Origin: a virus
DNA: 64,000 nucleotides
Reading direction: 5' to 3' (one strand)
IMG/VR virus record: IMGVR_UViG_3300027769_000020
Span: 27,528 to 91,527 of that record
Made by a program: the position numbers and the translations under genes. Below the pieces are notes generated by a model. The model searched no databases. It saw only the letters and a program-made list of their open reading frames with translations, and had not been told where the DNA came from. Shown piece after piece: positions 14,508 through 41,112 of this stretch (positions are counted from its first letter, which is position 1; every line of letters begins with the position of its first letter).

Positions 14508-14963
14508 ATGAAATTAAGTGAACACGTAACATTAAAAGAATTTTGTGATTCTAATACTGCTACAGCAAAAGGTATAAATAATACAATTACTGATCCTGTA
14601 CATTTAGAGAATGCTAAAAAATTAGCATTAAGTGTATTTGAACCAATTAGAGCTCATGTAGGACATGCAATTAATATTAATTCTGGATACAGAAGTAAAG
14701 CATTAAATAAAGCAATACCTGGTTCATCATCTACATCTCAACACTGTTTTGGTGAAGCTGTAGATTTAGATTTACATGACAGAGACTTATTTGAATGGAT
14801 TATAGATAACATTACTTTTGACCAAATGATATTTGAAGGTGGTACAGAAGATAAAGCTAACTGGTTCCATATATCTTACAGAGAAGGTAGAAACAGAAAA
14901 CAAGTATTAAGAATGATTAAAAAAGGTGGTAAATCTACGTATGTACCATATATAAGAAAATAA
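14508..14963 (+). CDS. endolysin, peptidase M15 family
   Basis: INSGYRS..LN, SQHCFGEAVD, FDQMIFE and WFHISY motifs. Confidence 0.85.
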   Translation: MKLSEHVTLKEFCDSNTATAKGINNTITDPVHLENAKKLALSVFEPIRAHVGHAININSGYRSKALNKAIPGSSSTSQHCFGEAVDLDLHDRDLFEWIIDNITFDQMIFEGGTEDKANWFHISYREGRNRKQVLRMIKKGGKSTYVPYIRK

Positions 14964-15248: not shown

Positions 15249-15542
15249 ATGGAAAGCGTAAACCAACAAGAACAAGAAGTAGAGTTAACAGCAGAAGAGT
15301 TAGCTGAGAAAAAAGAGCAGATGCTTAAATTCTACACTGAATCATTGCCTTATTTAAAAGCACAAGCTGAGTATGAGAAAACATTGTGTGAAATTGATGA
15401 GGCTAGATTTAAAAGAACTACAATTCAATATCAGTATGCTATGTTGATGCAACAACAAGAAGAGCAACCAGAAGGTGCAGATAATGATATTGATAACTCA
15501 CCAGAGATTCCTGAGCAAGGTAGAAAACTAAAAACAAATTAA
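15249..15542 (+). CDS. hypothetical coiled-coil protein
   Basis: 97-aa ORF after TATATTTG at 15218. Confidence 0.7.
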   Translation: MESVNQQEQEVELTAEELAEKKEQMLKFYTESLPYLKAQAEYEKTLCEIDEARFKRTTIQYQYAMLMQQQEEQPEGADNDIDNSPEIPEQGRKLKTN

Positions 15543-23732: not shown

Positions 23733-23845
23733 GGTTTAGCTATATAGTGCAAAAAATCAAATTGTAAAAATAGTGTATTTTAAATTTTAGAAGTTTATTT
23801 GTAAAAAAATAATTATATTATTAATAGTAACATAAAGACCAACAT

Positions 23846-25096
23846 ATGAATACTGATGAGCAAACAACACAAGATAACACTACAGTATCACAAGTAGATG
23901 TGAACTTAGATGAGTTATTTGGAATGCCTGGTGCGGATAACGTGATGCTACCAGAAGAGGAAGAGGAGAAAAAAACCCTTTTTACTAAAGAAGAAAAAAC
24001 TGATTTTGACTTTTTAGATAGCAAAACAGGAGTAACTAGTAAACAAGTAACACCTGAAGAAACTATTACTAAAGAAGAAGTTGAAGAGACAATTGCTGAA
24101 TTGGATAACTTAATTAGTCAAGAAGAGGATGCTGGTAATAAAGGTAGACCAAAAGTTGACAAGTCTGGGTTATATGACTTAGCTTCTAAAATGATTGAGG
24201 AAGGTACACTATTTGGATTTGATGATGATAAACCATTAGAGGAGTACACTACTAAAGACTTTAGAGAATTGTTTGAAGCTAACTTTCAGGAGAAAGAAAG
24301 AAAGATTAAAGAGGATGTGCCAAAAGAATTCTTTAATGCTTTACCTGATGAGTTAAAAGCTGCAGCTAAATATGTTGCTGATGGTGGACAAGACTTAAAA
24401 GGTTTATTCAGAACTCTTGCTCAAGTAGAAGAAGTATTTGAATTAGATCCAGAGGATGAGAATCATCAAGCTGAGATTGCAAGACAATACTTATATGCTA
24501 CTAACTTTGGTTCACCAGAGGAGATTGAGGCAGAGATTGAGGACTGGGCTGATGTAGATAAACTTGAGCAAAAAGCAAAACAGTTTAAACCAAAATTAGA
24601 CAGAATGCAGGAAGAGATTTTATCTAGAAAACTTGCAGAACAGGAAAGTAAAAAAGAGCAACAAATACAAGCTGCTAAACAATACACGGATAATGTGTAT
24701 AATGTATTATCAGTAGGGGAACTTGATGGTGTCAAGCTTGACAAAAAAGTTCAGAATATGTTATATAGTGGATTAGTGCAACCATCTTATCCATCTATAT
24801 CAGGTAAACCTACAAACTTATTAGGACACCTATTAGAGAAGTATCAGTTTGTAGAACCAAGACATGACCTTATTGCTGAAGCATTATGGTTACTTGCAGA
24901 TCCAGATGGTTATAAAAATAAGATTAAAGACCAAGGTACTAAAGCTGCAACTGAGAAAACAGTAAGAATGTTGAAAACTGAAGAGGCTAAAAAATTATCT
25001 TCATCATCATCAACAGAAGAAAAACAAGCTCCTAGAAAAACAACAGGTAATACTATTTCTAGAAGCACACCAAATAATATGTTTAAAAGATTTTAA
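23846..25096 (+). CDS. acidic scaffold-like protein
   Basis: Acidic, helical, located between portal and MCP. Confidence 0.6.
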   Translation: MNTDEQTTQDNTTVSQVDVNLDELFGMPGADNVMLPEEEEEKKTLFTKEEKTDFDFLDSKTGVTSKQVTPEETITKEEVEETIAELDNLISQEEDAGNKGRPKVDKSGLYDLASKMIEEGTLFGFDDDKPLEEYTTKDFRELFEANFQEKERKIKEDVPKEFFNALPDELKAAAKYVADGGQDLKGLFRTLAQVEEVFELDPEDENHQAEIARQYLYATNFGSPEEIEAEIEDWADVDKLEQKAKQFKPKLDRMQEEILSRKLAEQESKKEQQIQAAKQYTDNVYNVLSVGELDGVKLDKKVQNMLYSGLVQPSYPSISGKPTNLLGHLLEKYQFVEPRHDLIAEALWLLADPDGYKNKIKDQGTKAATEKTVRMLKTEEAKKLSSSSSTEEKQAPRKTTGNTISRSTPNNMFKRF

Positions 25097-25126
25097 TAAA
25101 CAATATAAACAAATAAACAAATACAA

Positions 25127-26754: not shown

Positions 26755-26786
26755 AAAAAAAGGAGGGGCCAGTCTCCTCCTTTTTT
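26755..26786 (+). terminator. intrinsic (bidirectional) terminator after MCP
   Basis: A7-GGAGG...CCTCC-T6. Confidence 0.75.
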
Positions 26787-26826
26787 ATTATATTTACAAT
26801 TATAAACATTTTAAAACCAACATAAA

Positions 26827-27837
26827 ATGGAATTTACACACGTAGAAGTATTTAATACTAACAAGAGCAACAAGATCTCTATCAAGCCTTACTTTGACAA
26901 CTCAATGTCAAATATGGGATTAGAAAATTATGGTCAATCATTATTTGATGGAGTTAAACATTTTGAACAACTAGCATGTCTAGAGCAAAATGGAGTAATA
27001 AGATATGTAACAGGGTTAAATGAATTTGCACCTGAGATTAAATTATTACCAACAGAACAAAGAGAAGCAAAAGTAAAACAGATTAGAATTGCTGTTGCTG
27101 AATTAGAAAGAGAGTTAGCAGCTAACATATTAGATGTTGAGAGCCCAACTTTCTGGAATGATGTTAAACTATTAAGACCAGACAATAAAGAATTCTGGAA
27201 TAAGATTAACATGTCATGTGGTAATGAACCAGTGTATTTAGACCCTACTAATCCATATGATAGAATTAAATTATATGCTGTTGAAGCAGGTGGATTTTCA
27301 CTTGTATCAAGAAGCTATGATGATGCTAGATCAAAAGCAGTACCACCAAAATTTTACTTAGATAAAGTAACTGAAACAAGTGGTATCAAAACTGAATACA
27401 AAAAACTTAAAAATAAAGCTCTTGCTGAGTTACAAAAATTGTTTGATAAAAACAGTACTAAATTATTTTACATTGCTAAGTCAGTAGATACAGCAAGTGT
27501 ACAGTATAAAAAACATACACCAAATGATGTTATTTATGATAACATGGATAGACATATCAATGGTGAAGGTACAGAAGGTAATAAAGAAAGAGCAGCAAAA
27601 GGATTCTTAGATGCAGCAGCTTTAGATATGGAAACATTAAAAATTAAAGCAATTGTAAAAGATTCCATATTTTTTAAGTATATTATTAATAAGTCAGATG
27701 GTTATATCTATCATGCTAAATCAAATAGCTTGTTAGGTAGAAATGTTTCTGATGTAATTGAGTTCTTGAAAAACCCTTTAAATGAGGATATTTTAAAAGA
27801 CTTAAACACACAAGTTGAAAAAGTGTGGAATATGTAA
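26827..27837 (+). CDS. conserved virion-module protein following MCP
   Basis: 336-aa ORF; synteny with the crAss-like capsid module. Confidence 0.65.
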   Translation: MEFTHVEVFNTNKSNKISIKPYFDNSMSNMGLENYGQSLFDGVKHFEQLACLEQNGVIRYVTGLNEFAPEIKLLPTEQREAKVKQIRIAVAELERELAANILDVESPTFWNDVKLLRPDNKEFWNKINMSCGNEPVYLDPTNPYDRIKLYAVEAGGFSLVSRSYDDARSKAVPPKFYLDKVTETSGIKTEYKKLKNKALAELQKLFDKNSTKLFYIAKSVDTASVQYKKHTPNDVIYDNMDRHINGEGTEGNKERAAKGFLDAAALDMETLKIKAIVKDSIFFKYIINKSDGYIYHAKSNSLLGRNVSDVIEFLKNPLNEDILKDLNTQVEKVWNM

Positions 27838-27846
27838 ACAACTTCA

Positions 27847-27880
27847 GGGTATACTAGTAACCGCTAGTATACTCTTTTTT
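27847..27880 (+). terminator. intrinsic terminator
   Basis: GGGTATACTAG/CTAGTATACTC stem plus T6. Confidence 0.75.
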
Positions 27881-34989: not shown

Positions 34990-35008
34990 ACCATTAAAAA
35001 CCAACAAA

Positions 35009-35155
35009 ATGGCTAATTGTCCAAACTGCAAAACAAGATTGACATGTGGATGTCAAAAAAGAACTGCTTCTAATAAAGCACAAGTATGCTCAAATTGTAT
35101 TAGTAAATATGAAATGGGTCTTAAAAAAACACAAGTAAATAAAACTACTAAATAG
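35009..35155 (+). CDS. 48-aa Cys-rich protein (CxxC...CGC...CxxC)
   Basis: Hand translation MANCPNCKTRLTCGCQKRTASNKAQVCSNCISKYEMGLKKTQVNKTTK*. Confidence 0.7.
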   Translation: MANCPNCKTRLTCGCQKRTASNKAQVCSNCISKYEMGLKKTQVNKTTK

Positions 35156-36937: not shown

Positions 36938-38635
36938 ATGAAACCATTAAATTTTGATAATTCTCCATGTAGTCCAACTTCTTCAAATTGTGTAATTTGG
37001 GCAGGTCCGGACTTAGCATGCATAAATGTATGTAAAGGAGATAATATTACAGATGTTACTGCAAAACTAGCAACTGAAATATGTGCTATTTTAGATACGT
37101 TAAATATTAACTCATATGATCTTGACTGTTTCAATTTAACAAATTGTGCACCACAGACATTTCAAGATTTAATTAACTTTTTAATTGTCAAGATTTGTCA
37201 ATTAGAAAATATACCAGTTACTCCAGTAGTACCAGATTCAGGTGATTGTCCATCAAATTGTATTGTTGATGTTGCACCATGTCTTGTTGAGAATGGTGTT
37301 ACTACTATGTCATTAACAGACTACGCAATTGCAATTGGAGATAGATTATGTTCTCTTATTGATACAGTTAGTTTACAACAAATAGCTATTACTGATTTAG
37401 ATGTTAGGGTAACAGTATTAGAAAATACAGTTCCTCCATCATATACAACTCCTACAATGGAAATGGGTTGTGATATTGCAACTCTATCAACTGGTAGTAC
37501 ACAAGGTATTGATACAGTTATTAGAACATTTATAAATGATATTTGGTGTACATATGTAAGTACTACAGGTAATGCTGGATGTCTTGCTGCTGCTGTAGCA
37601 AGTCAAACTGTTGATGGAGGTGATTCATCAAAAACAAATCCATTAGTAACTATGTCTGTACAATATGCAGGATTATGGATTGAACCTGCTTCAACAATAT
37701 GTGACTCAATTAATAATATTTGGTTATGTATTGAAGATTTAAGAAATGCACCAGTACAATCTCCATTTAACTTATTAGGTACAGCAGTTGATGCGGGTAG
37801 TAATAAAACATCTGCAATTGAAAGATATAATTCTATTTACACAGTTGGTTATGATTCATATTTTAATTCTGTAAGAGTTGGTCTTGGTAATAGTAATGTA
37901 AGTTCAAATACAGCTATAGGTTCTTTTGCTTTGTTAAGTAACACTACTGGTTCATTTAATACTGCAGTTGGTAGATCTGCTTTAACAGCAAACACAACAG
38001 GTATTTATAATGTTGCTGTAGGTACACGTGCATTAACTGCAAACAGTGTAGGACAAGCAAATGTTGCTATTGGGGATTACTGTTTAAATGCAAACTTATC
38101 TGGTGATTATAATATTTCAATTGGACATAATGCAATGTCACTTAATACAATTGGAAACAATAATGTTGGTATAGGTGAGCAAGCATTGTATAAACAAACA
38201 ATTGGTAATTTAAATACTGCTATTGGTTCATATGCAATGAATGATAACTTAACTGGTAGCAATAATACGGCAATTGGTAATCAAGCATTGTATAGTAACA
38301 CTACAGGTGGTAATAATATTGCAATTGGTGATATAGCAGGTAAAATAGATTTATTAGGTGCTGCAAATATAAATTCTAATACATCAATATATATTGGTAA
38401 TAATACTAGGTCATCTACAACATCTGATACAAATCAAATTGTAATTGGTTTTGCTGCAGAAGGTAAAGGTTCTAATACAATTCAAATTGGTAATACAAGT
38501 ATAACAAGAACATATTTACAAGGTGATATTACAATCAGTGATGCTACAGCAGTTACAGCAGCAGTTGTATCTCAAACTAAACATTTTCCAATTGTAATAA
38601 ACGGTGTGACTTATAAATTATTACTTGCAGATTAA
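36938..38635 (+). CDS. tail fibre protein (Cys-rich N-terminus, N.AIG repeats)
   Basis: SNCVIW.GPD N-terminus; NTAIG..AL..NTTG repeats. Confidence 0.75.
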   Translation: MKPLNFDNSPCSPTSSNCVIWAGPDLACINVCKGDNITDVTAKLATEICAILDTLNINSYDLDCFNLTNCAPQTFQDLINFLIVKICQLENIPVTPVVPDSGDCPSNCIVDVAPCLVENGVTTMSLTDYAIAIGDRLCSLIDTVSLQQIAITDLDVRVTVLENTVPPSYTTPTMEMGCDIATLSTGSTQGIDTVIRTFINDIWCTYVSTTGNAGCLAAAVASQTVDGGDSSKTNPLVTMSVQYAGLWIEPASTICDSINNIWLCIEDLRNAPVQSPFNLLGTAVDAGSNKTSAIERYNSIYTVGYDSYFNSVRVGLGNSNVSSNTAIGSFALLSNTTGSFNTAVGRSALTANTTGIYNVAVGTRALTANSVGQANVAIGDYCLNANLSGDYNISIGHNAMSLNTIGNNNVGIGEQALYKQTIGNLNTAIGSYAMNDNLTGSNNTAIGNQALYSNTTGGNNIAIGDIAGKIDLLGAANINSNTSIYIGNNTRSSTTSDTNQIVIGFAAEGKGSNTIQIGNTSITRTYLQGDITISDATAVTAAVVSQTKHFPIVINGVTYKLLLAD

Positions 38636-38659
38636 TATTAAAATAAAAATTTTTCAATT

Positions 38660-39697
38660 ATGAATACATGTATAAAATGTGGTTGTGATAATTCTTATCC
38701 TTCATTGCCACCAAGTCCAACTCCAGCACCATGTCCAGATCCACAACCATGTGCAGAATTTTTTGACGCACAATGTGTAGTATATACATTACCTAATATT
38801 ACATGTGATGAAACTACCGTAGTATTTCAAGATGATACAGTAGCTGCAGCACTTCAAAATATTGTAGATTATTTCTGTGAAGCAATTGCAACATTAACAG
38901 ATTATGTTAATGCACAATTAACTATTATCAATAATAGACTTACAGTTATTGAAGGAGATATAGTAAATATAGAAAATGACATTACAAGTATTCAAGGTGA
39001 TATTACTACTATTGAAGGTGATATAACAACTATTGAAGGTGACATAACAAATATAACAACTCTTGTAGGTCAAGCAATGCCTGTAGGTTCTTTATTAGCT
39101 TGGGCTGGTAATCAAACTACAGTGGCTCCTCCAACTGGTTGGTTATTTTGTGATGGATCAACAGTAAGTAAAACTACGTATATTAATTTATACAATGCTA
39201 TTAAGGATGATTTTAGTAATGGTGCTCCAATACCAACTAATCAATTTTACTTACCAAACTTAATTGAGAAAATACCATATGGAAGTACAGCAGGTAATGT
39301 TGGTAATCTTGTAGGTAATAATACAATGAACGGAACTGTAGTAGGTACAGCAACTGTAAATATTGATATTAATAACTTACCAGAACATAATCACACATTA
39401 ACTGAAGTAAGTATTACAGGAGGTACTCACGGACATCTTATTAAAGCAGACCCTAATGGTGGTGGAACAGGAAGTAATGATGGTTTTACATTAACACAAA
39501 ATACTACTAGTGAATATAATGCAGGACCTACTGGTACTAACTGGATTTATGGTGGTGGACATACACATTCATTTAGCGCGTATGTTACACAAACAGGTGA
39601 AACAGGTACAACTCAAGCATCAGGAACTATCTCAGGTTCATTTACAGAAGACAATAGACAAGCTAGTGTATCAATAAGATACATTATAAAATATTAA
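38660..39697 (+). CDS. tail fibre with coiled coil and tail-collar domain
   Basis: IEGDITT heptads; PVGS...WAG...P.GWLFCDG...LPNL collar; LPEHNH, HTH. Confidence 0.8.
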   Translation: MNTCIKCGCDNSYPSLPPSPTPAPCPDPQPCAEFFDAQCVVYTLPNITCDETTVVFQDDTVAAALQNIVDYFCEAIATLTDYVNAQLTIINNRLTVIEGDIVNIENDITSIQGDITTIEGDITTIEGDITNITTLVGQAMPVGSLLAWAGNQTTVAPPTGWLFCDGSTVSKTTYINLYNAIKDDFSNGAPIPTNQFYLPNLIEKIPYGSTAGNVGNLVGNNTMNGTVVGTATVNIDINNLPEHNHTLTEVSITGGTHGHLIKADPNGGGTGSNDGFTLTQNTTSEYNAGPTGTNWIYGGGHTHSFSAYVTQTGETGTTQASGTISGSFTEDNRQASVSIRYIIKY

Positions 39698-39703
39698 AAG
39701 AGT

Positions 39704-39728
39704 GTCGCAGTTTGTTGGTTTCTGTGAC
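39704..39728 (+). ncRNA. hairpin displaying a UUUGUUGGUUU loop (candidate antisense sRNA element)
   Basis: Stem GTCGCAG/CTGTGAC; loop complementary to AAACCAACAAA. Confidence 0.5.
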
Positions 39729-39738
39729 TGACAACAAG

Positions 39739-39773
39739 ACCCCGGTATATGCTCAATACCGGGGTTATTTTTT
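39739..39773 (+). terminator. intrinsic terminator
   Basis: ACCCCGGTAT/ATACCGGGGT stem plus T run. Confidence 0.8.
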
Positions 39774-39856
39774 ATATATAAGTTTAAAGTACTATATTTG
39801 TTTTAGCATGCAGGCTTTTATAAGTCTGAAAAATTTAGTATATTAATATATAAGAT

Positions 39857-40444
39857 ATGGAAAGCAAAATATTTAAGAGACCAGATGTTAAAGGTAAAAG
39901 ATTTAGAGATAATGTACATCATACTTTAAATCCTAAATTCTATAAAGCATTTAAAAACAAGTATCCTAAGTATGCTGAAATAGATAATAAAGATTTAAGA
40001 AAAATATGTTTAGCTTTTAATAATCTTTTTTGGGAAACTGTTATAGAAAATAGAGATGGTGTGCAGTTACCAGAAGGTTTAGGTAATATATTTATAGGCA
40101 CATGTCAATCAAGTAAGAAAAGAAATATTGATTATGGCAAGTCTAATAAATATGGAATCATTGTTACAAATACAAACTGGGGCACTGATAATAAACTGGC
40201 TAAAATATTTTATACAAATTTTGCATCTAAGTATCACTTTCTTAATAGAGACTGTTGGGCTTTTAATGCATGCAGAAACTTTAAAAGAACTGTAGCAAAA
40301 ACATACTCAACAAACTGGCCAATATATATTACTGTTGAACCAATGAAAAAGATACGTAAAATAGTTACAAGATCTAAACAGAGGGAATACATGAAGAGTG
40401 TTGAGGACAATAAATTAAAAACATATAATGAATTTGATATATGA
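39857..40444 (+). CDS. IHF-like basic protein of the crAss tail module
   Basis: FN....E.VIENRDGVQLPEGLG.IFI; position before ring genes. Confidence 0.5.
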   Translation: MESKIFKRPDVKGKRFRDNVHHTLNPKFYKAFKNKYPKYAEIDNKDLRKICLAFNNLFWETVIENRDGVQLPEGLGNIFIGTCQSSKKRNIDYGKSNKYGIIVTNTNWGTDNKLAKIFYTNFASKYHFLNRDCWAFNACRNFKRTVAKTYSTNWPIYITVEPMKKIRKIVTRSKQREYMKSVEDNKLKTYNEFDI

Positions 40445-41112
40445 CAACAATTGGAGAAGCAATATCAAGAGTAAGAAATGCTCTTAAAGCAGTTAAAGAA
40501 GATCCATTCTTAACTGATAGAACAATTTATTTTGCAATATCAAAGTATGGTAAAGCTTTATTAAAAAGAGAAGATAATCAGAATAGACTTATGAAAATAA
40601 GTTCTATATTTTCTGTATTAACTTATGTTGAGTTAATTGACATTGATAAAGTTGAAGCAGGATGTGCAGGTATTACATCAGGTTGTTACATTAAAAGAAC
40701 TAAAGAAAAACTACCTAAGTTTTTTGATGGTTTAAATGGACCACTTATCCGTACTGTATCATCATTAGATACATCAGTAGAATTATTTAGAACAGATCCT
40801 GGAACTTATTCTTCTATGACTAAAGTAAATAGTTTTAAGTATAACAACAAGAAATATTTTTGGTATTTAAATGGATACTTATACTTACCTAATGTACCTT
40901 GGGAAGCAATTAAAGTGGAAGGTGTATTTGAAGATAACATATCAGGTTTTACCTGTGATACTTCAGAGGAGTGCAAATTTAGAAATGATGACCAATTGCC
41001 TTTCCCAGATTATTTATTTGGTGAGATTGAGCAATATGTGTTAAAAGAATTAACTATGTCTATCAATGTACCAAGCAATGGACCTGATGATAGTCAAAAC
41101 TCATTAAGATAA
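40441..41112 (+). CDS. tail ring protein
   Basis: LTDR.IY, RTKEKLP, YFWYLNGYLY and EGVFE motifs; synteny. Confidence 0.6.
   Translation: MTTIGEAISRVRNALKAVKEDPFLTDRTIYFAISKYGKALLKREDNQNRLMKISSIFSVLTYVELIDIDKVEAGCAGITSGCYIKRTKEKLPKFFDGLNGPLIRTVSSLDTSVELFRTDPGTYSSMTKVNSFKYNNKKYFWYLNGYLYLPNVPWEAIKVEGVFEDNISGFTCDTSEECKFRNDDQLPFPDYLFGEIEQYVLKELTMSINVPSNGPDDSQNSLR

Follow-up and report, generated by a model that had tools for sequence, protein, structure and literature searches.

Translation in the Bacteroidota proceeds without Shine-Dalgarno (SD) pairing, and little is known about how phages of these SD-less hosts control the translation of their late genes. A locus in an uncultured freshwater phage raises the question of whether RNA could take part in such control, as the 3′-UTR of its tail-fibre gene holds a small hairpin whose loop is antisense to an A/C-rich motif, ACCAACA, that recurs at the starts of several late genes. 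It has to be asked whether the hairpin and the motif (referred to below as the tag) belong to one regulatory system, or whether they are separate elements whose complementarity has another origin.

The stretch of DNA that was analysed (the window) covers 64 kb at the right end of an IMG/VR virus record of 91.5 kb. Genes of the left arm are on the minus strand and those from ~28.5 kb of the record rightwards are on the plus strand, where the products include the large terminase, portal, a 538-aa major head protein, tail-fibre and tail-spike proteins, and giant virion proteins of 1580-1768 aa. The PHROG terminase, portal and major head families give good matches in this genome. The crAss-like label of the phage is tentative, the match of the 538-aa major head protein to crAss001 gp32 (7QOF) being weak (E 0.001). 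Start regions in the window are without SD sequences and are A-rich at -14..-11 and -3, and several genes are preceded by TAnnTTTG boxes; because of these features a Bacteroidota host, as assigned in an earlier first-pass annotation of this DNA, appears compatible with the start regions and boxes, the genus being unknown. An A-rich, SD-less start pattern has been described for Flavobacterium johnsoniae, in which adenines at -12/-13, -6 and -3 are documented as important for initiation (PMC6847099).

No cultured relative was found in the GenBank phage collection when it was searched by DNA, by the 336-aa protein or by the 194-aa protein (both encoded in the window and described below), and there is therefore no annotated homologue to consult. 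Public runs that contain DNA of positions 36938-41112 are freshwater, river and lake metagenomes, and no RNA runs are listed among them. In the search for a host, an endolysin query against assembled genome contigs returned no relative, and a profile of the 194-aa protein returned two contigs of the family that had been binned into published MAGs:

117.9-kb contig (L515): whole phage genome of the family, in a Chitinophagaceae MAG
120.3-kb contig (L516): whole phage genome of the family, in a ‘Rickettsiales’ MAG

The G+C content of the Chitinophagaceae MAG is 44-46%, versus 31% in the phage. The ‘Rickettsiales’ MAG is implausible as a host and its phage contig is almost certainly mis-binned, because this MAG uses SD sequences. 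Stop-codon recoding was considered for relatives that are poor in open reading frames and was rejected, as giant genes account for the low number.

The hairpin and its immediate surroundings consist of the following elements:

38660-39697, plus strand: tail-fibre gene, 345 aa, with a tail-collar domain (PHROG tail-fibre/collar families, Pfam Collar); stop codon at 39695-39697, hairpin in the 3′-UTR
39704-39728, plus strand: whole hairpin, 25 nt, between the variable tail-fibre gene and a strong terminator
39704-39710, plus strand: 5′ arm GUCGCAG (DNA GTCGCAG), paired with 39722-39728
39711-39721, plus strand: 11-nt loop UUUGUUGGUUU (DNA TTTGTTGGTTT), the proposed anti-tag seed
39722-39728, plus strand: 3′ arm CUGUGAC (DNA CTGTGAC), paired with 39704-39710
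39729-39739, plus strand: 11-nt CA-rich linker UGACAACAAGA, in which CAACAA is able to pair with the loop (possible pseudoknot)
39740-39773, plus strand: intrinsic terminator with a 9-bp G+C-rich stem and a 7-nt loop (stem-loop 39740-39764), followed by a U-run (T-run 39765-39773)

The stem begins 6 nt past the fibre stop and has seven pairs, of which one is G-U, and the loop is unpaired in both the MFE and the centroid folds (region z = -3.2). The first hairpin is not itself an intrinsic terminator, since it is followed by UGACAACAAGA instead of a U-run; it is the second hairpin that fits this description. Downstream of the terminator a TATATTTG box is found at 39793, ahead of the next gene. 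The plus strand has strong terminators in three places only, behind the major head gene, behind the 336-aa gene and behind the hairpin, from which it is inferred that the hairpin closes a 12-kb late operon (~27.9-39.8 kb).

Conservation of the hairpin is extensive. At 11 of the 14 closest fibre loci the hairpin, terminator and promoter lie directly 3′ of the stop codon, with an extra gene after the fibre gene in two of the others and a sequence that ends too early in the last. An exact search of IMG/VR with 17 nt, comprising the loop and its closing pairs, located 114 places, ~100 of which have the same fibre-hairpin-terminator context. Because a search of this kind fixes the loop by construction, a second set of 80 loci was collected independently of the hairpin, through the profile of the downstream 194-aa protein, which in these loci is 50-76% identical to that of the window. 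The hairpin was seen in 76 of the 80, and in three more the insertion of an extra gene has placed it one gene further away on the 5′ side; here it still adjoins the fibre-like gene, in keeping with the 3′-UTR placement that the first-pass annotation had given it. The one remaining locus is cut off. The exact 11-nt loop is present in 56 of the 80 loci, and the other loops show differences at the edges, a single U-to-A change, or an insertion. GUUGG is present in all hairpins found, and the invariant loop core is UGUUGGU.

The stem has changed in sequence while retaining its pairing. Among 54 distinct homologues all 378 of 378 cells are standard pairs, versus 21-60% when the partner column is slid, with exchanges of the types CG/UG/UA and GU/AU/GC/UA and nine extra pair types reached via G-U intermediates. 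A minus-strand RNA was rejected, as the G-U pairs would turn into C-A mismatches on that strand; the covariation shows that selection has maintained the helix as a plus-strand RNA structure. The loop is identical even where the neighbouring 194-aa protein is only 50-55% identical and where the terminator sequence and the upstream gene have been replaced, and judged by these comparisons it is under stronger selection than its surroundings. Stem covariation around an unchanged loop core, which had been put forward beforehand as a check on the locus, is what the relatives display, and a more distant phage contig has the stem GUAGAG/CUCUGC around a GUUUGUUGGUUUU loop, again between stop codon and terminator.

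Sequence upstream of the hairpin, which starts 1-12 nt past the fibre stop, is not conserved, and there is no conserved promoter that would serve the hairpin alone; its terminator is shared with the fibre mRNA. A terminator follows the hairpin in every relative, different in sequence and covarying, and an ACAA-type linker is present in most. A covariance model finds exactly one hairpin copy in each of seven genomes (47-61 bits). A read-through or frameshift signal is unlikely because the distance from stop codon to hairpin varies. At gathering thresholds Rfam 15 yields no family match anywhere in the window, the P1/P7 c4 family included, and ARAGORN finds nothing tRNA-like in it. The hairpin of a DGR target gene is likewise not supported, there being no RVT_1 in the 91.5-kb record (~76% complete), and the accompanying search for a long repeat involving the 3′ end of the fibre gene found none.

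The tags of the window, and the genes that carry them, are as follows (energies are those of the predicted duplex with the loop):

34998-35008, plus strand: tag AAACCAACAAA, complementary to the loop at 11 of 11 positions, directly before the ATG at 35009; -12.4 kcal/mol
35009-35155, plus strand: 48-aa zinc-ribbon gene, tagged by AAACCAACAAA, in the same operon as the hairpin
26814-26822, plus strand: tag AAACCAACA, in the short 5′ UTR of the 336-aa late gene (ATG 26827); -10.6 kcal/mol
26827-27837, plus strand: 336-aa late gene, with terminators on both sides
23838-23844, plus strand: tag ACCAACA, before the ATG at 23846; -10.7 kcal/mol
23846-25096, plus strand: 416-aa head-region gene, between the portal and major capsid genes
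15260-15269, plus strand: tag AAACCAACAA, in codons 4-7 of the 97-aa gene; -9.9 kcal/mol
15249-15542, plus strand: 97-aa gene, with its tag within the first codons
Before the endolysin ATG at 14508: variant AAACCAAACA, with a weak duplex of -6.8 kcal/mol, not counted as a target

Every position that the first-pass annotation had assigned to the hairpin, its stem and loop, the terminator and the tags is correct. Its inclusion of the endolysin variant among the targets could not be upheld, pairing there being too weak. For the three tags upstream of an ATG, folding predicts open leaders (mean unpaired probability 0.64-0.79), and three of the four tags are in very short leaders just 3′ of promoter-like boxes. 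The leader of the zinc-ribbon gene is the only 11/11 match to the loop in the window.

Some features of the tagged genes and their neighbours deserve description in their own right. The 48-aa protein is an unannotated, basic protein of zinc-ribbon type with the cysteine pairs CPNC...CGC...CSNC; it is conserved in relatives and may bind nucleic acid. The 336-aa gene forms a single-gene unit between two strong terminators (26756-27875), and with 72-94% identity over 80 relatives (493 in all) it is far more conserved than the neighbours of the major head protein; no family or solved structure matches its product. The leader of the major head gene (25087-25126) is made up of AAACAA-type repeats and has no CCAAC, and is thus CA-rich and untagged.

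All three sense-strand copies of AAACCAACA in the genome of the window are within -20..+25 of a start (p ~3e-4), and ACCAACA occurs three times in the 20 nt upstream of starts versus 0.1 expected (p 1.4e-4). Enrichment within a single genome is no more than suggestive, as a few other 6-mers do equally well there. The analysis also covered the -20..-1 regions of 604 starts in six related genomes, that of the window and five fetched whole, without use of the loop. ACCAAC is the most over-represented 6-mer before these starts (15 versus 1.24 expected, p 6e-12), CCAACA is third and AACCAA fifth, and among the 20 orderings of A3C3 it is ACCAAC and the overlapping CCAACA that are the two most start-concentrated. 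The p-values overstate independence because the genomes are related. The next most over-represented G/C-containing 6-mer before starts in this set (G000-G005) is AGACTG, with seven occurrences versus 0.6 expected.

At orthologous genes the tag is retained to the following extent:

336-aa gene: ACCAAC in 80 of 80 orthologues (of 493 relatives in all), 3-7 nt separating the last copy from the ATG (18 nt in one leader)
416-aa gene: ACCAAC in 73 of 79 orthologues, 0-6 nt before the ATG
48-aa zinc-ribbon gene: ACCAAC in 24 of 33 orthologous leaders

The 39 distinct leaders of the 336-aa gene have one copy in 18 cases, two copies in 18 and three copies in three. The tag inside the 97-aa gene is found at the same place in G001, G002, G004 and the phage of the Chitinophagaceae MAG, and is conserved at both the nucleotide and the amino-acid level. 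Comparison of orthologues thus shows the tag, on sequence evidence, to be a conserved start-region element. Membership of the proposed regulon would be loose, because the tag is missing from nine of the 33 zinc-ribbon orthologues, two of which (L483 and L484) are on contigs that carry the hairpin. ACCAAC is not enriched at the starts of the Chitinophagaceae MAG or of the SD-using MAG, for which reason the tag looks phage-specific so far.

The correspondence between hairpin and tag is one of exact complementarity, since UGUUGGU and ACCAACA, the respective invariant cores of loop and tag, are complements of each other. Duplex energies were calculated for the loop alone, because RNAcofold is unable to model loop kissing. 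All four of the top-ranking duplexes predicted for the genome, at -9.9 to -12.4 kcal/mol, involve late plus-strand genes; the next best reaches -8.5, and the best gene of the early, minus-strand arm -7.9 kcal/mol. When the native loop is ranked by its pairing to starts against all 165 arrangements of U8G3, it comes third or fourth in four genomes and eighth or ninth in two, and nearly all of the arrangements listed above it are register shifts of the same GUUGG core. Loop and tags co-occur in every lineage examined, including the two most distant phage contigs. The pair is compact and very widely conserved, comprising a 25-nt hairpin and a leader tag of 7-9 nt.

Between genes, the UGUUGGU orientation is found once per genome, in the hairpin, and the other copies examined are antisense images of tags; this count excludes three copies in the fragmentary G005. 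There is one clear exception, the large-terminase leader of G003 (L303; ~77520-77545, plus strand), which reads UUUGUUGGU-AAA-ACCAACAAU-AUG and is a local hairpin with the loop sequence facing a tag. It occurs in this genome only, and as a predicted structure it supports the logic of loop-tag pairing. The tags do not follow the loop-flank variants GUUGUUGG and UUAGUUGG in the same genomes, where no covariation between loop flanks and tags was seen; nor did a compensatory change come to light, since neither core varies. As refutation of the proposed pairing, the first-pass annotation had named a lack of ACCAAC enrichment at starts and a lack of loop conservation in relatives. Both computational tests came out in favour, as ACCAAC ranks first among upstream 6-mers over the six genomes and is retained at orthologous genes, and the loop core is unchanged in relatives; the idea is to that extent supported. 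Taken as a whole the association of hairpin and tag is, by the comparative data that decide the matter, far beyond chance.

It is proposed, with slightly better than even confidence and in the absence of RNA data, that the hairpin is a 3′-UTR anti-leader regulatory RNA that pairs with the tagged starts and probably represses them. The end piece of ~70 nt, made up of hairpin, CA-rich linker and terminator hairpin, would stay on the mRNA or persist as a stable decay product, and its 11-nt loop would pair with the AAACCAACA tag at about -14 to -4 of start codons. The targets would be a few late genes, namely the 336-aa, 416-aa and 48-aa zinc-ribbon genes, and the 97-aa gene inside its first codons. 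A duplex of 9-11 bp over the start-region adenines (-14..-11, -6 and -3) would be expected to hinder binding of the 30S subunit, because SD-less initiation in Bacteroidia depends on unpaired upstream adenines. The most likely effect would be repression of the tagged head-region genes once the tail operon is expressed. Repression is favoured because leaders that are predicted to be open offer no inhibitory structure that pairing could relieve, and the alternative of an SD-like adaptor, raised in the first-pass annotation, has no specific support. Stabilisation remains possible, as does a bridge that links 5′ and 3′ ends.

Pairing in the cell, accumulation of a short RNA, and repression rather than stabilisation or activation are all inferred. 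What is expected of a trans-acting sRNA derived from a 3′-UTR is met by the locus in that the loop is an accessible and conserved seed, the target sites are conserved at orthologous leaders, and the terminator is shared in the absence of an own promoter. The proposal is weak in that the loop-tag duplex is short and A/U-rich, and an 11-nt loop cannot pair over its full length without strain. Moreover, the 3′-end RNA of the tail operon would need to reach levels comparable to those of very abundant head-gene mRNAs.

A more ambitious version of the same idea can be entertained, although it is on balance doubtful: that a large group of uncultured phages, whose hosts are SD-less Bacteroidota, uses a private translation code of tag and anti-tag, in which tags enhance and the hairpin acts as a timer that shuts off or resets head genes. 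In this version, the head-region genes with the strongest translation would carry ACCAACA in their leaders as an enhancer, and the hairpin, set free from the 3′ end of the tail-fibre operon, would come into play upon expression of the tail genes. The outcome would be an RNA-based switch of head/tail balance, conserved in hundreds of phage genomes, in which the 48-aa zinc-ribbon protein may be a partner.

Against a pairing function stands one serious rival, which is nonetheless considered unlikely. It holds that hairpin and tag are unrelated elements, the tag being a stand-alone CA-rich unstructured enhancer of late genes and the hairpin a site for a phage or host protein or a signal for 3′-end processing or stability, with a complementarity that comes from U/G-rich and A/C-rich composition. 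The tags, in one to three copies, are indeed placed where upstream adenines matter (PMC6847099), the major capsid leader is likewise AAACAA-rich, yet without CCAAC, ~4% of U8G3 arrangements hold the same GUUGG core, and the loop flanks do not covary with the tags. It would nevertheless have to be accepted that an invariant UGUUGGU is by accident the exact complement of an invariant ACCAACA, whose ACCAAC is the single most enriched upstream 6-mer, and that loop and tag co-occur even where the stem has been replaced; the match in composition is itself part of the coincidence. Should pairing prove irrelevant, ACCAACA would still be a conserved element of the start region for which present models of initiation in Bacteroidia have no explanation. 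Pairing of the loop in cis with the CAACAA linker, to give an H-type pseudoknot by the terminator that acts as an element of 3′-end stability or termination efficiency, is improbable. In the window UUGUUG can face CAACAA (39732-39737) with plausible geometry at -6.6 kcal/mol, a value that 5% of shuffled linkers equal, and A-to-G changes of the linker in relatives would keep pairing to U. Over the 54 distinct homologues, however, the mean loop-linker energy is barely better than that of shuffled linkers (-3.9 versus -3.2), clades such as those of L092, L098, L110, L124 and L127 are without a usable partner or would have to melt the stem, and the linker drifts while the loop is invariant; the tags, too, are left unexplained.

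Little credence is given to a motif that operates at the level of DNA, be it double-stranded AAACCAACA bound by a phage regulator just 3′ of late promoters and also, as a single inverted copy, where the fibre operon ends, or a block that serves as the homology arm of the fibre cassette. Although conserved sequence does start 1-12 nt past the stop of a gene whose C-terminal part is swapped, and tags do lie between promoter-like boxes and ATG, the stem evolves by G-U-mediated compensatory changes that are relevant only in RNA, and one tag is inside an open reading frame and conserved in nucleotides and amino acids. A homology arm, moreover, would not lead one to expect a stem that changes in sequence at 100% pairing, or one that is exchanged while its loop is kept. 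There remains mimicry of a cellular RNA that contains GUUGGU, either the tRNA D-loop AGUUGGUUA or the 5′ strand of 16S helix 11 UAGUUGGUGAGG, by which the loop would titrate a factor. The core GUUGGU was seen in 16S genes (L570-L575 and L549), UAGUUGGU occupies this site in five of the six Bacteroidia 16S genes sampled, adjacent tRNA genes carry CAGUUGGUUAG, and the loop variant UUAGUUGGUUU matches 8 nt of 16S/tRNA sequences. A match of 6-8 nt to a 1.5-kb rRNA or to a common D-loop is, however, at the level of chance (~0.3 expected for a 6-mer), the helix 11 segment is base-paired in the ribosome, the tags again find no explanation, and nothing tRNA-like is seen by ARAGORN or Rfam, all of which makes mimicry scarcely credible.

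If the hairpin is taken as a base-pairing RNA, the favoured reading, several known systems bear comparison with it. The c4 antisense RNA of phages P1 and P7 (Rfam family C4) has loops that pair with short repeats overlapping ribosome-binding sites. Like c4, the hairpin is a phage-encoded structured RNA with an exposed loop directed at short repeated start-region targets, and like c4 it would be cut from the same kind of transcript as a target, since the target at 35009 shares its operon. There is no homology in sequence or structure (no Rfam match), and there is one loop where c4 has two. The targets here are on several late transcripts rather than in one immunity operon, and are an A/C-rich start-region tag in an SD-less host rather than an SD sequence, and the role would be lytic late-gene control rather than immunity. 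The tag taken by itself recalls CA-rich, SD-independent enhancers such as the TMV omega leader (CAA repeats and a ACCAACAA stretch) and CA repeats in E. coli, in being A/C-rich, predicted to be unstructured, and present in one to three copies in very short leaders of highly expressed genes. This comparison covers the tag only and not the hairpin, and the motif is unenriched at starts in one Bacteroidota MAG, whose status as a host is uncertain.

Base-pairing sRNAs derived from 3′-UTRs are well established in enterobacteria, with CpxQ, SroC, DapZ and MicL as examples. The hairpin resembles these in having a conserved seed just 5′ of a terminator that also serves the parent mRNA, in lacking a promoter of its own, and in consisting of no more than a seed hairpin and a terminator; it differs in that a hairpin loop, not a single-stranded 5′ end, presents the seed and in that it is encoded by a lytic phage. 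To our knowledge, no Hfq-type chaperone has been identified in the host phylum. In Bacteroides thetaiotaomicron there are 21 UTR-derived sRNA candidates, and the sRNA GibS of this species anneals over the start codon region of its target mRNAs and represses them (PMC7366714). The start-region base-pairing proposed for the phage hairpin would thus have a likeness in the Bacteroidota, though GibS, at 145 nt, is an intergenic sRNA of the host whose 5′ seed is long and unstructured (PMC7366714), whereas the phage RNA has an 11-nt loop and targets that share a dedicated tag. A base-pairing RNA from a phage or from a 3′-UTR is accordingly known in kind; what is new is a dedicated start-region tag in combination with an RNA, in an SD-less host, with conservation across well over a hundred uncultured phage contigs. 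We know of no regulatory RNA from crAss-like or other phages of Bacteroidota, and literature searches for such RNA found nothing. If the proposal is true, hairpin and tags would constitute a new RNA family and a phage regulon recognisable from sequence alone, and the tag with its anti-tag would offer a tool for translation control in Bacteroidota.

The region around the hairpin is also of interest with respect to gene exchange and promoter architecture. The tail-fibre gene (38660-39697, L002-L015) is a swap cassette, after which conserved sequence restarts exactly at the hairpin. Among relatives of the fibre gene, which range from 287 to 766 aa, only the N-terminal 70-135 aa are conserved and the C-terminal parts are unrelated. 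Further downstream, a promoter-like box TTT(T/A)GTATATTAA is conserved in the window (39836-39849) and in relatives (L208-L287, L400-L479). It is located ~20-25 nt 5′ of the start codon (ATG) of the 194-aa gene, and many relatives also have it before the 416-aa gene at this distance; it is distinct from the TAnnTTTG box, which sits further upstream, and may mark a phage-specific class of promoter. In some relatives a gene of 234-262 aa, whose start (LFYDIETS) is DnaQ/PolB-exonuclease-like, has been inserted between the terminator and the 194-aa gene:

L158, 6102-6887 (also in L100, L144 and L177): inserted gene with a DnaQ/PolB-exonuclease-like start
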